Below are positions 949 to 27,190 of a stretch of DNA of 36,673 nt, piece by piece (the stretch's first letter is position 1; every line of letters starts with the position of its first letter). Position numbers and translations under genes: made by a program. The DNA comes from Escherichia coli (GTDB lineage Bacteria; Pseudomonadota; Gammaproteobacteria; Enterobacterales; Enterobacteriaceae). The stretch is from assembly GCF_003334315.1 (NCBI RefSeq), contig NZ_QOWR01000049.1; one strand, given 5' to 3'. The notes beneath the pieces are model-generated. The model saw only the letters and a program-made list of their open reading frames with translations. It ran no database searches and was not told where the DNA came from.

Positions 949-2487
949 ATGCAACAACCTGTAGTTCGCGTTGGCGAATGGCTTGTTACTCCGTCCATAA
1001 ACCAAATTAGCCGCAATGGGCGTCAACTTACCCTTGAGCCGAGATTAATCGATCTTCTGGTTTTCTTTGCTCAACACAGTGGCGAAGTACTTAGCAGGGA
1101 TGAACTTATCGATAATGTCTGGAAGAGAAGTATTGTCACCAATCACGTTGTGACGCAGAGTATCTCAGAACTACGTAAGTCATTAAAAGATAATGATGAA
1201 GATAGTCCTGTCTATATCGCTACTGTACCAAAGCGCGGCTATAAATTAATGGTGCCGGTTATCTGGTACAGCGAAGAAGAGGGAGAGGAAATAATGCTAT
1301 CTTCGCCTCCCCCTATACCAGAGGCGGTTCCTGCCACAGATTCTCCCTCCCACAGTCTTAACATTCAAAACACCGCAACGCCACCTGAACAATCCCCAGT
1401 TAAAAGCAAACGATTCACTACCTTTTGGGTATGGTTTTTTTTCCTGTTGTCGTTAGGTATCTGTGTAGCACTGGTCGCGTTTTCAAGTCTTGATACACGT
1501 CTTCCGATGAGCAAATCGCGTATTTTGCTCAATCCACGCGATATTGACATTAATATGGTAAATAAAAGTTGTAACAGCTGGAGTTCCCCGTATCAGCTCT
1601 CTTACGCGATAGGCGTGGGTGATTTGGTGGCGACATCACTTAACACCTTCTCCACCTTTATGGTGCATGACAAAATCAACTACAACATTGATGAACCGAG
1701 CAGTTCCGGTAAAACATTATCTATTGCGTTTGTTAATCAGCGCCAATACCGTGCTCAACAATGCTTTATGTCGATAAAATTGGTAGACAATGCAGATGGT
1801 TCAACCATGCTGGATAAACGTTATGTCATCACTAACGGTAATCAGCTGGCGATTCAAAATGATTTACTGGAGAGTTTATCAAAAGCGTTAAACCAACCAT
1901 GGCCACAACGAATGCAGGAGACGCTCCAGCAAATTTTGCCTCATCGTGGTGCGTTATTAACTAATTTTTATCAGGCACATGATTATTTACTGCATGGCGA
2001 TGATAAATCATTGAACCGTGCCAGTGAATTATTAGGTGAGATTGTTCAATCATCCCCAGAATTTACCTACGCGAGAGCAGAAAAAGCATTAGTTGATATC
2101 GTGCGCCATTCTCAACATCCTTTAGATGAAAAACAATTAGCAGCACTGAACACAGAAATAGATAACATTGTTACACTACCGGAATTGAATAACCTGTCCA
2201 TTATATATCAAATAAAAGCGGTCAGTGCTCTGGTAAAAGGTAAAACAGATGAGTCTTACCAGGCGATAAATACTGGCATTGATCTTGAAATGTCCTGGCT
2301 AAATTATGTATTGCTTGGCAAGGTTTATGAAATGAAGGGGATGAACCGGGAAGCGGCTGATGCATATCTCACCGCCTTTAATTTACGCCCAGGGGCAAAC
2401 ACCCTTTACTGGATTGAAAATGGTATATTCCAGACTTCTGTTCCTTATGTTGTACCTTATCTCGACAAATTTCTCGCTTCAGAATAA
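949..2487 (+). CDS. cadC: CadC, membrane-integrated ToxR-like pH/lysine-responsive activator of cadBA
   Basis: 512 aa ORF; N-terminal winged-helix DNA-binding domain, single TM segment (FTTFWVWFFFLLSLGICVALVAF), periplasmic sensor domain; sequence recognised as CadC. Confidence 0.95.
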   Translation: MQQPVVRVGEWLVTPSINQISRNGRQLTLEPRLIDLLVFFAQHSGEVLSRDELIDNVWKRSIVTNHVVTQSISELRKSLKDNDEDSPVYIATVPKRGYKLMVPVIWYSEEEGEEIMLSSPPPIPEAVPATDSPSHSLNIQNTATPPEQSPVKSKRFTTFWVWFFFLLSLGICVALVAFSSLDTRLPMSKSRILLNPRDIDINMVNKSCNSWSSPYQLSYAIGVGDLVATSLNTFSTFMVHDKINYNIDEPSSSGKTLSIAFVNQRQYRAQQCFMSIKLVDNADGSTMLDKRYVITNGNQLAIQNDLLESLSKALNQPWPQRMQETLQQILPHRGALLTNFYQAHDYLLHGDDKSLNRASELLGEIVQSSPEFTYARAEKALVDIVRHSQHPLDEKQLAALNTEIDNIVTLPELNNLSIIYQIKAVSALVKGKTDESYQAINTGIDLEMSWLNYVLLGKVYEMKGMNREAADAYLTAFNLRPGANTLYWIENGIFQTSVPYVVPYLDKFLASE

Positions 2488-2562
2488 GTAACTCCCGGGT
2501 TGATTTATGCTCGGCAATATTTGTTGTTGAGTTTTTGTATGTTACTGTTGGTATAATATGTT

Positions 2563-2592
2563 GCGGCAATTTATTTGCCGCATAATTTTTAT
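2563..2592 (+). terminator. cadC intrinsic terminator
   Basis: Palindrome gcggcaa-tttat-ttgccgc followed by a T-rich run, ~75 nt after the cadC stop. Confidence 0.6.
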
Positions 2593-2599
2593 TACATAA

Positions 2600-2852
2600 A
2601 TTTAACCAGAGAATGCCCCGCAATTTATTGTAAACATTGAATGTTTATCTTTTCATGATATCAACTTGCGATCCTGATGTGTTAATAAAAAACCTCAAGT
2701 TCTCACTTACAGAAACTTTTGTGTTATTTCACCTAATCTTTAGGATTAATCCTTTTTTCGTGAGTATTCTTAGCGCCAGTTTGGTCTGGTCAGGAAATAG
2801 TTATACATCATGACCCGGACTCCAAATTCAAAAATGAAATTAGGAGAAGAGC
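2600..2852 (+). promoter_or_regulatory. Pcad promoter / CadC- and H-NS-bound regulatory region upstream of cadBA
   Basis: AT-rich intergenic region between cadC and cadB; position matches the known Pcad region; individual binding sites not resolved by eye. Confidence 0.5.
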
Positions 2853-24737: not shown

Positions 24738-24764
24738 CATACTTTTTGCGCGGGCCCACCCCGC
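24738..24764 (+). terminator. Strong intrinsic terminator downstream of adiA
   Basis: GCGCGGG-cccac-CCCGCGC followed by 8 T, ~108 nt after the adiA stop. Confidence 0.8.
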
Positions 24765-24954
24765 GCTTTTTTTTGCCTGTTATTTATCCTGTAAAAAAAT
24801 ATGTACATGAGAAATTACTATAAAAATTTGTACTATTAGTAAAACTCGTTATTTTTATGCATGTTTATATTCATCATACAATTATATAACCATTTCCCGG
24901 TATCGCTTTGCTTTAGCGAGAACTGGTCTTTTATTCGCACTCAGGAGTACATGT

Positions 24955-25716
24955 ATGAGGATTTGCAGCGACCAACCTTGTATTGTTTTATTGACTGAAA
25001 AAGATGTCTGGATAAGGGTGAATGGGAAAGAACCTATTAGCCTTAAAGCTAACCATATGGCGTTATTAAATTGTGAAAATAATATTATCGACGTCTCCTC
25101 TCTTAACAACACTTTGGTTGCTCATATTAGTCACGACATCATCAAAGATTACCTCCGGTTTCTGAATAAAGATCTCTCGCAAATACCAGTATGGCAACGT
25201 AGCGCTACGCCCATACTCACCCTGCCATGCCTGACGCCAGACGTCTTTCGCGTTGCCGCGCAACACAGCATGATGCCCGCAGAAACTGAGTCAGAAAAGG
25301 AACGAACACGCGCATTATTATTCACGGTGCTATCCCGTTTTCTCGACAGTAAAAAATTCGTTTCATTAATGATGTATATGTTACGTAATTGTGTAAGTGA
25401 CAGCGTTTATCAAATTATTGAAAGCGATATTCACAAAGACTGGAATCTTAGTATGGTAGCCAGTTGTTTATGTCTTAGCCCAAGTCTGTTAAAGAAAAAG
25501 TTGAAAAGCGAAAACACCAGTTATAGCCAAATAATCACCACCTGCCGCATGCGTTATGCCGTAAATGAATTAATGATGGACGGTAAAAATATCTCTCAGG
25601 TATCACAGTCCTGCGGCTACAACAGTACGTCGTACTTTATTTCTGTCTTTAAAGACTTCTACGGTATGACGCCGCTGCATTATGTTAGTCAGCACAGAGA
25701 ACGCACTGTCGCCTGA
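24955..25716 (+). CDS. adiY: AdiY, AraC-family regulator of the adi system
   Basis: 253 aa with C-terminal AraC-type HTH; recognised as AdiY. Confidence 0.95.
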   Translation: MRICSDQPCIVLLTEKDVWIRVNGKEPISLKANHMALLNCENNIIDVSSLNNTLVAHISHDIIKDYLRFLNKDLSQIPVWQRSATPILTLPCLTPDVFRVAAQHSMMPAETESEKERTRALLFTVLSRFLDSKKFVSLMMYMLRNCVSDSVYQIIESDIHKDWNLSMVASCLCLSPSLLKKKLKSENTSYSQIITTCRMRYAVNELMMDGKNISQVSQSCGYNSTSYFISVFKDFYGMTPLHYVSQHRERTVA

Positions 25717-25852
25717 TTTTTAACCTTAACGAAGAGCTATATTAATAACGGCATCAGCGATAACCCGGTCGATAATAATTCAACTATCGAATGCAGGTGT
25801 ATGATATGACGTAATTTATTGTCACGAAGCTCGCCTTCGCAGGAGTTTAATT

Positions 25853-27190
25853 ATGTCTTCGGATGCTGATGCTCACAAAGTGGGCTTAATCCCCGTCACC
25901 CTGATGGTGTCGGGGAATATTATGGGGTCAGGTGTTTTTCTGTTACCTGCAAACCTGGCCTCTACTGGCGGGATTGCCATTTATGGATGGTTGGTGACGA
26001 TTATCGGTGCACTGGGGCTCTCGATGGTATACGCCAAAATGTCGTTCCTCGACCCAAGTCCTGGTGGTTCTTACGCTTACGCCCGCCGCTGCTTTGGCCC
26101 GTTTCTCGGTTATCAAACCAACGTCCTCTACTGGCTGGCCTGCTGGATCGGCAATATCGCCATGGTGGTCATTGGCGTAGGATATTTAAGTTACTTCTTC
26201 CCGATTCTGAAAGATCCATTGGTATTAACCATCACCTGCGTCGTGGTGCTGTGGATCTTCGTCCTGCTGAACATTGTCGGTCCGAAAATGATCACCCGTG
26301 TGCAGGCAGTTGCCACCGTGCTGGCGCTGATCCCCATCGTCGGGATTGCCGTATTTGGCTGGTTCTGGTTCCGTGGTGAAACCTATATGGCGGCATGGAA
26401 CGTCAGCGGCCTGGGCACCTTCGGTGCAATTCAAAGTACCCTTAACGTTACGCTGTGGTCGTTCATCGGTGTGGAAAGTGCCTCCGTTGCCGCAGGTGTG
26501 GTGAAAAACCCGAAACGCAATGTCCCTATCGCCACCATTGGTGGGGTATTGATTGCCGCCGTTTGCTATGTACTTTCTACCACCGCGATTATGGGGATGA
26601 TCCCTAATGCCGCACTGCGCGTTTCTGCTTCGCCATTCGGTGATGCCGCACGGATGGCGTTGGGTGACACCGCCGGGGCCATTGTTTCCTTCTGCGCAGC
26701 TGCGGGTTGCTTAGGTTCACTGGGCGGCTGGACGTTGCTGGCGGGTCAAACGGCGAAAGCCGCTGCCGATGACGGACTGTTCCCACCAATTTTTGCCCGT
26801 GTAAATAAAGCGGGTACGCCAGTGGCGGGGCTGATTATCGTCGGTATTTTGATGACCATCTTCCAGCTCAGCAGCATTTCACCAAACGCGACCAAAGAGT
26901 TCGGTCTGGTTTCTTCCGTCTCGGTCATCTTTACACTGGTGCCATATCTTTACACCTGTGCGGCGTTACTGCTGCTCGGACACGGTCACTTTGGTAAAGC
27001 ACGCCCGGCATATCTGGCAGTTACTACCATTGCCTTCCTCTACTGCATCTGGGCCGTGGTGGGGTCCGGAGCGAAAGAGGTTATGTGGTCATTTGTCACC
27101 CTGATGGTCATCACCGCCATGTATGCGCTGAATTACAACCGGCTACATAAAAACCCGTATCCCTTAGATGCACCAATAAGCAAAGATTAA
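25853..27190 (+). CDS. adiC: AdiC arginine:agmatine antiporter (APC superfamily)
   Basis: 445 aa polytopic membrane protein recognised as AdiC; paralogous to CadB. Confidence 0.95.

Follow-up and report, generated by a model that had tools for sequence, protein, structure and literature searches.

Cad and Adi acid-resistance modules in an Escherichia coli chromosomal segment: homologous decarboxylase-antiporter cores under unrelated regulators

The stretch of DNA analyzed here, 36,673 nucleotides of Escherichia coli (NCBI RefSeq assembly GCF_003334315.1, contig NZ_QOWR01000049.1; hereafter the window), almost certainly carries the canonical Cad (AR4) and Adi (AR3) systems of acid resistance, at their usual place in the chromosome. 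This identification follows from collinearity with E. coli K-12, protein identity, homology, domain assignments, key residues, and terminators, and nothing in the sequence speaks against it. A first-pass annotation, made from the sequence alone, had described two paralogous decarboxylase/antiporter modules within 26 kb, each with a dedicated regulator of a different family and with a different gene order, and had regarded this as established biology. That finding is correct, far beyond chance, and already known (PMC8989999, PMC12826058, PMC2984483); its span, 949-27190, runs exactly from the start codon of cadC to the stop codon of adiC. As a discovery it carries little weight, the systems being textbook ones in what is essentially the K-12 allele, and the window can be annotated with confidence.

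Results and Discussion

Identity of the window and of the six genes

The window is ordinary E. coli chromosome, as judged from its list of open reading frames (ORFs) and a megablast search against 5426 complete E. coli genomes. Bases 311-36673 are collinear with K-12 MG1655 at 99.56% identity, in reverse orientation, at K-12 coordinates 4.326-4.362 Mb. From base 119 to its end, the window is 99.95% identical to strain 210221272, whose RefSeq annotation names all the genes, in concordance with that of K-12. An exact match is lacking among complete RefSeq E. coli genomes, the closest of which differs by 15 substitutions and 2 insertions or deletions. The components of the two modules, with genes placed according to the RefSeq and K-12 annotation, are as follows.

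949-2487, + strand: cadC, 512 residues, membrane-integrated ToxR-like one-component activator of cadBA
2488-2852, + strand: cadC-cadB intergenic region, 365 bp, 34% guanine plus cytosine (GC); terminator hairpins and the cadBA promoter/CadC-binding region, function from the literature
2495-2532 and 2562-2582, + strand: terminator-like hairpins after cadC, from a hairpin search
2853-4187, + strand: cadB, 444 residues, lysine/cadaverine antiporter of the APC superfamily
4267-6414, + strand: cadA, 715 residues, inducible lysine decarboxylase
6426-6451, + strand: terminator-like hairpin closing the cadBA operon, an 11-bp stem with 6 GC pairs, then a T run
22363-24630, + strand: adiA, 755 residues, biodegradative arginine decarboxylase
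24748-24766, + strand: terminator-like hairpin after adiA, 7 GC pairs, then T8
24955-25716, + strand: adiY, 253 residues, cytoplasmic AraC/XylS-family activator
25853-27190, + strand: adiC, 445 residues, arginine/agmatine antiporter of the APC superfamily
27215-27244, no strand assigned: 13-bp palindromic hairpin between adiC and eptA, terminator-like on both strands

Two start codons depart from the mechanical ORF list in favor of the RefSeq and K-12 annotation: cadA begins at 4267 and not at the upstream in-frame ATG at 4228, and adiA begins at 22363 and not at 22360.

Homologous cores

The first-pass annotation had proposed that the decarboxylases and the antiporters of the two modules are homologous, and direct comparison bears this out for both pairs. 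In BLASTP, the alignment of CadA with AdiA spans almost the entire proteins (266 of 740 positions identical, 36%; 477 bits; E = 7e-163), and CadB and AdiC are identical at 171 of 447 positions (38%; 318 bits; E = 4e-109). Both decarboxylases have the same three-part Pfam architecture, comprising an N-terminal wing domain (OKR_DC_1_N; residues 14-124 in CadA and 18-134 in AdiA), a PLP (pyridoxal 5'-phosphate)-binding major domain (OKR_DC_1; 130-545 and 140-589), and a C-terminal domain (OKR_DC_1_C; 570-700 and 615-742); AdiA gives weak additional matches to Pyridoxal_deC and Aminotran_1_2. CadA scores 1628 bits against the NCBIfam lysine decarboxylase subfamily model (cut-off 1056), and AdiA scores 1705 bits against the arginine decarboxylase equivalog (cut-off 1167). 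A fold-type I core is recovered for both through matches to structures in the PDB, the fold-type label itself coming from the literature on those structures: CadA matches the solved CadA over its full length (3n75, 1666 bits) and also the solved AdiA (2vyc). The lysine that forms the Schiff base with PLP is Lys367 in CadA and Lys386 in AdiA, each in an STHK motif within QSTHKLL/HSTHKLL, and the two residues are aligned with each other.

The two antiporters match curated models over their full length and above the cut-offs. CadB reaches 920 bits against the NCBIfam cadaverine/lysine antiporter equivalog (cut-off 585) and 489 against TIGR00905 (cut-off 409), and AdiC reaches 892 bits against the arginine/agmatine equivalog (cut-off 574). 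AdiC also matches PDB entries 3lrb and 5j4i over its full length (3lrb over residues 1-445). CadA, CadB, AdiA, and AdiC are each identical to their K-12 counterparts. By this identity to characterized enzymes, CadA is expected to be specific for lysine and AdiA for arginine, both with the decameric state at acid pH. The same identity, together with the literature, suggests that CadB and AdiC exchange substrate for product.

Unrelated regulators and different wiring

The third component of each module is of a different kind. CadC scores 753 bits against the NCBIfam CadC equivalog (cut-off 400) and has a Pfam Trans_reg_C domain at residues 24-100 and a CadC_C1 domain at residues 191-324. It has no Response_reg match, and NCBIfam response-regulator models reach it solely via their C-terminal DNA-binding parts; its N terminus is an OmpR/PhoB-type winged helix with no receiver domain. 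The strongest hydrophobic 19-mer (residues 161-179; mean hydropathy 2.46) falls between the DNA-binding and periplasmic domains, so that hydropathy and Pfam together predict one membrane-spanning helix ahead of a periplasmic sensor domain. The periplasmic cysteines, Cys208 and Cys272, are present. CadC is identical to the K-12 protein at 511 of 512 positions, the one difference being K328Q (window 1930) in the periplasmic domain.

AdiY, in turn, has the two-helix-turn-helix C-terminal DNA-binding domain of AraC proteins (Pfam HTH_AraC at 155-195 and 208-243; HTH_18 at 169-244), and no hydrophobic segment was found in it. It passes no NCBIfam equivalog, its best model being GadX with 154 bits, under the cut-off of 500; its nearest E. 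coli relatives are GadX (33% identity; E = 5e-42) and GadW. It is identical to the K-12 protein, and both published pH-switch residues of its N-terminal companion domain, His34 and His60, are in place. BLASTP found no similarity between CadC and AdiY (best segment E = 0.1), which rules out the regulators as paralogs. The Pfam domains, the hydrophobic segment of CadC, and this lack of similarity uphold the assignment of the two regulators to a ToxR-like membrane family and to the AraC family. The description of the modules as paralogous holds for the decarboxylases and antiporters, that is, for two of the three components only, the regulators being unrelated.

Gene order differs as well, as had been noted, with regulator-antiporter-decarboxylase in cad and decarboxylase-regulator-antiporter in adi. 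A hairpin search located terminator-like sites after cadC, cadA, adiA, and adiC; the gaps between cadB and cadA (79 bp) and between adiY and adiC (136 bp) contain no such site. This points to an operon-like layout in which cadC would stand alone ahead of a cadBA operon. Because a terminator-like hairpin follows adiA, this gene would form a separate transcription unit, followed by adiY and adiC. A 30-bp element containing the adiA terminator is kept in Citrobacter, Hafnia, and Yokenella. The regulator genes are also set apart by composition: cadC has a GC content of 42.0% and adiY of 41.3%, as against 47.6-53.7% for the structural genes, and the regulatory intergenic regions are at 34-37%. The AT-richness of the regulator genes fits targeting by H-NS and later acquisition.

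The cad module is decayed in Shigella and enteroinvasive E. coli; that one or both modules are likewise mere relics here is a reading that we consider highly improbable. Signs of local decay and of mobile elements do exist in the window: melB is frameshifted, and the left edge carries island DNA and the end of an IS3 element. In addition, ~4% of complete E. coli genomes lack cad or have it only in part. However, no frameshift or premature stop was found in any of the six cad and adi genes, all of which are full length and on the + strand; five of the products are identical to functional K-12 proteins and CadC has a single change at a conservative position, and the catalytic and sensing residues checked are all present.

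Mechanism and regulation

As intact canonical systems, the two modules would work alike at the level of chemistry. CadA or AdiA, as a cytoplasmic wing-domain PLP decarboxylase, would consume one proton for each amino acid decarboxylated, and CadB or AdiC would then export the amine, cadaverine or agmatine, in exchange for new substrate from outside, so that decarboxylation and exchange together would raise both the internal and the external pH. The consumption of a cytoplasmic proton by the decarboxylase and the swap of amine for substrate by the antiporter are described for the characterized systems (PMC8989999; PMC12826058). Induction by acid and a role in survival at low pH are likewise to be expected by analogy with K-12, the proteins being identical or nearly so.

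The homologous cores would nevertheless answer to different signals, with membrane-anchored CadC driving a bicistronic cadBA and soluble AdiY driving adiA and adiC. Published work describes CadC as a ToxR-family membrane sensor that responds to a periplasmic/external pH of ~5.8, to external lysine through LysP, and to cadaverine by feedback (PMC8989999), and AdiY as activated through protonation of His34 and His60 in an acidified cytoplasm, at an external pH of ~4.4 (PMC12826058). What the regulators sense, at which pH they respond, and on which promoters they act presumably carry over to this strain, judging from such work on identical proteins. The two modules are not independent, being coupled, according to the literature, via cytoplasmic pH, H-NS, and RcsB/GadE. 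When cadA is deleted, induction of Adi is stronger and sets in at a higher pH, and raised CadC levels lower it, effects ascribed to cytoplasmic pH (PMC8989999); H-NS binds the cadC, cadBA, and adiY promoters (PMC2984483). Each module does have its own regulator, as the first-pass annotation held, but "dedicated" is slightly too strong a word for AdiY, which also influences gadA, gadBC, hdeAB, and hdeD (PMC2984483).

Three minor uncertainties attach to this account. The first is a dispute over AdiY at the adiC promoter, where one study saw no gel shift (PMC2984483) and another reported binding upstream of both adiA and adiC (PMC12826058). The second is the effect that K328Q might have in the periplasmic domain of CadC. 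The third concerns the cadC-cadB intergenic region, which has 10 differences from K-12 (2.7%) and is the most polymorphic of the segments scored, the DNA of cadB being identical and the adi intergenic regions having just two nucleotide differences; because these 10 changes lie in the cadBA regulatory region, the strength of cadBA induction could differ quantitatively in this strain.

Conservation and proximity of the two modules

Both modules are near-universal in E. coli. Among the 5426 complete genomes, cad is covered to at least 80% in 5192, unmatched in 158, and covered to less than 80% in another 76; these losses fit the known recurrent loss of cad in some pathotypes. The adi module is covered to at least 80% in 5401 genomes, that is, all but 25. 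Window positions 1-25000 are covered to at least 80% in one place in 4598 genomes. The rest of the gene content, following the RefSeq and K-12 annotation, is given below.

6473-7930: dtpC
8167-9684: lysU
9803-10300, - strand: ghoT and ghoS
10527-11041, - strand: yjdJ and yjdI
Between yjdI and the mel genes: dcuS, dcuR, dcuB, fumB, and yjdF
Ahead of adiA: melB and melA (- strand), then melR
After adiC: eptA, basR, basS, pmrR, proP, rdcB, and rdcA

The proximity of cad and adi within 26 kb is not obviously functional. The collinear block seen in those 4598 genomes, the lysine-related dtpC and lysU directly downstream of cadA, and the binding of H-NS at the cadC, cadBA, and adiY promoters (PMC2984483) could be taken as signs of a functional "acid island" whose 26 kb are regulated or inherited together for acid stress. 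We judge this improbable, since the 16 kb between the modules encode unrelated functions on mixed strands and with their own regulators: GhoT/GhoS, DcuSR, DcuB/FumB for anaerobic C4-dicarboxylate metabolism, and the melibiose operon. The parts also behave independently, in that cad is unmatched in 158 genomes and adi is almost never lost, and melB, which lies between the two modules, is frameshifted here, with its tested segment missing from 1296 of the 5426 genomes. Moreover, the adi side of the block (dcuSR-dcuB-fumB-yjdF-mel-adi-eptA-basR) is kept in Citrobacter and Salmonella, yet the 2.7 kb ahead of dcuS in Citrobacter sp. NCU1 encode a heme ABC transporter and not lysU-dtpC-cad. In Salmonella LT2, cadCBA presumably lies far from adi.

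Assembly of the Adi module in related genomes

Neighbors of adiA were mapped by tblastn at 80 AdiA loci, one genome per species. Across this sample, adiY comes out as a later addition between adiA and adiC. Escherichia, Citrobacter, and Salmonella share the order dcuSR-dcuB-fumB-yjdF-(mel)-adiA-adiY-adiC-eptA-basR, and at 18 of 18 Xenorhabdus loci adiA directly adjoins adiC with no regulator between them. In Hafnia and two further Enterobacteriaceae, the slot between adiA and adiC is occupied by an AraC gene 49-54% identical to AdiY.

The Hafnia gene deserves a separate remark. In Hafnia alvei (locus L028, 2712-3470) and H. paralvei (L029, 12600-13358), the AraC-family gene between adiA and adiC is 49-51% identical to AdiY. 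Hafnia has been stated to be without AdiY homologs (PMC8989999), a discrepancy that probably stems from the search threshold.

The partner of the decarboxylase varies as well. In Vibrionaceae, Shewanella, and Variovorax (L055-L076, L085), an enzyme of the AdiA clade (61-69% identical to AdiA) adjoins an antiporter of the PotE clade, which is 49-56% identical to PotE (430-475 bits) and just 34-37% identical to AdiC. In Vibrionaceae and Shewanella, this antiporter gene lies upstream of the decarboxylase gene, either divergent from it or in the same direction. In Variovorax, where the locus has three decarboxylase paralogs in a row, it lies downstream. On the evidence of these loci, the two-gene core is old and widespread, its partners are exchangeable, and its regulators were added later and independently, in agreement with the published phylogenetic profile, where regulators have a narrower distribution than decarboxylase-antiporter pairs (PMC8989999).

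These loci bear directly on a simpler history, in which one ancestral decarboxylase-antiporter pair was duplicated as a unit, possibly in situ, with each copy then gaining its own regulator. We regard such a history as doubtful. Among the E. coli paralogs, the decarboxylases and the antiporters do rank alike in similarity, CadA-AdiA (478 bits) exceeding AdiA-SpeC/SpeF (339-360) and these exceeding CadA-SpeC/SpeF (311-330), with the same order in CadB-AdiC (318), AdiC-PotE (254), and CadB-PotE (198). Further, a decarboxylase adjoins an antiporter in nearly every AdiA locus sampled, and the low GC content of both regulator genes relative to the structural genes fits their later recruitment. However, the order within the pairs is opposite, cadB preceding cadA but adiA preceding adiC, and the pairing of AdiA-clade enzymes with PotE-clade antiporters in Vibrionaceae, Shewanella, and Variovorax shows that partners can be exchanged. 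The published distributions of Cad and Adi also differ (PMC8989999), and the proximity of cad and adi is not kept in the Citrobacter locus. Taken together, the decarboxylase-antiporter pairings appear to have been reshuffled, not simply copied en bloc.

A composite arrangement at five loci suggests where a regulator such as AdiY might have come from. In Yokenella, two Kluyvera species, Kosakonia, and an Enterobacter sp. (L022, 12397-14112; L023, L026, L050, L078), a cassette separates adiA from adiY. Four of these loci have in it a GadE homolog (45% identical; E = 8e-58), hdeD on the opposite strand, and hdeA, the Kosakonia locus having only the gadE-like gene and hdeA; an hdeB-like gene lies downstream of adiC in three of the five. 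HdeD and HdeA of Yokenella exceed the NCBIfam equivalog cut-offs, and the Yokenella cassette is bounded by the conserved adiA terminator and a conserved element upstream of adiY. A full-text literature search on related terms returned no description of the order adiA-gadE-hdeD-hdeA-adiY-adiC, no paper having been examined specifically for it.

One tentative reading, which we rate as unlikely on present evidence, is that adiY is a GadX/GadW-type regulator that entered adiA-adiC with or from a gadE-hdeD-hdeA cassette, the modules having been repeatedly reassembled from interchangeable parts. Under such borrowing from Gad/Hde, the composite locus of Yokenella, Kluyvera, Kosakonia, and the Enterobacter sp. 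would still show that state. This reading draws on related loci and not on the window. The Kluyvera group may have gained the cassette, or other lineages may have lost it; no coding remnants of gadE, hdeD, or hdeA were found between adiA and adiY in E. coli, a result that does not discriminate between gain and loss. As a separate observation, gadE, hdeD, and hdeA sit in E. coli in the acid fitness island beside GadX and GadW, the closest paralogs of AdiY.

The sensing residues of AdiY have also diverged among these genomes. Among 31 AdiY-like genes (L006-L078), position 60 is His in four, from Escherichia only, Arg or Lys in 26, and Tyr in one, and His34 is kept in 27 of the 31. Variation at His60 in Salmonella and Citrobacter has already been reported (PMC12826058), and our survey extends it to Kluyvera, Yokenella, Kosakonia, and Hafnia. 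The by-products of this comparison, namely, the insertion of adiY, the gadE-hdeD-hdeA cassette, and the exchange of partners in Vibrionaceae, bear on how such modules are assembled and rewired; they refine known biology and do not amount to a new kind of system.

Other features of the window

Positions 1-121 are the terminal 121 bp of an IS3-family element, 100% identical to annotated IS3 transposase/element sequences, and this end occurs at up to 17 places per genome; the left boundary of the window therefore falls within an insertion sequence. The island DNA at 122-310 has no K-12 counterpart and corresponds in related genomes to the end of a DUF4942 gene in a CP4-like island with CbtA/YeeU toxin-antitoxin genes. 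Bases 529-688 resemble a degraded tyrosine integrase, named yjdQ in K-12, where pheU comes next after it. In this strain, pheU is either outside the window or displaced by the island DNA.

Directly downstream of cadA (6473-9684) lie dtpC, encoding a peptide permease, and lysU, encoding the second lysyl-tRNA synthetase and labeled lysS in the RefSeq strain record; with cadBA, these form a lysine-themed cluster. A type V toxin-antitoxin pair, ghoT/ghoS, with a GC content of ~35%, is placed between lysU and yjdJ.

Within window 19030-19120, the melB gene (- strand) has a 1-bp deletion in a T run, near 19063, with T6 on the coding strand here and T7 in K-12 and strain 210221272. It shifts the frame after about codon 150 and cuts the product to 161 residues from 473. 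The deletion was found in none of the complete RefSeq E. coli genomes, the best of the 4130 that match being 99.7% identical over window 18900-19250; it is either an inactivating mutation peculiar to this strain or an error in sequencing the homopolymer. In two other Escherichia species (L006 and L007, around 7233-7260), yjdF abuts melA without an intervening melB. Because the tested segment (18900-19250) is missing from the 1296 genomes noted above and yjdF abuts melA in these two species, melB is evidently often lost in this neighborhood.

A tRNA scan of the whole window gave zero tRNA genes, Tandem Repeats Finder reported nothing, and STnc630 and naRNA4 were the only Rfam matches at the gathering threshold. 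A permissive Rfam scan gave nothing in the cadC-cadB intergenic region and, in the adiA-adiY-adiC intergenic regions, sub-threshold matches only, all on the adiA terminator hairpin; none of the known RNA elements appears to belong to the cad or adi module. The STnc630 match (30672-30837, - strand; 178 bits) lies directly downstream of proP and overlaps the 3' end of basS on the opposite strand. It contains the whole 29-codon pmrR ORF (30679-30768), and therefore this family, classed as a small RNA, coincides with the mRNA of a small protein. At the right edge (36496-36673) are two naRNA4 (nucleoid-associated RNA/REP-type) elements, the first beginning at 36503 and the second cut by the end of the window; K-12 and strain 210221272 have about five to six similar copies of ~100 bp in a row at this site.

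Comparison with known systems

The cad module of the window has the same genes, order, spacing, and chromosomal position as the Cad system (AR4) of K-12. Upstream of cadC, K-12 has the yjdQ remnant and then pheU, whereas the window has a yjdQ-like remnant and then island DNA and the IS3 end. From the K-12 Adi system (AR3) there is no difference of note, the three proteins being identical and His34 and His60 being kept.

Beyond these direct counterparts, the same two protein families recur in speF-potE (AR5), which encodes an inducible ornithine decarboxylase and a putrescine/ornithine antiporter. SpeF and SpeC share 31-34% identity with CadA and AdiA; for PotE against CadB and AdiC, the figure is 32-33%. 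As in adi, the decarboxylase gene comes first, but speF-potE represents a third kind of wiring, with no adjacent transcription factor and, in the K-12 annotation, an upstream leader peptide, SpeFL; it also lies at a distant chromosomal position. LdcC and SpeC are solitary isozymes, with no adjoining antiporter gene.

The Gad system (AR2) follows the same logic of a proton-consuming decarboxylase and an APC antiporter, and its regulators, GadX and GadW, are the closest E. coli relatives of AdiY. GadA and GadB are classed in a different group of PLP decarboxylases, one without the wing domain, and GadC is only distantly related to CadB and AdiC, which score 44-59 bits on GadC models.

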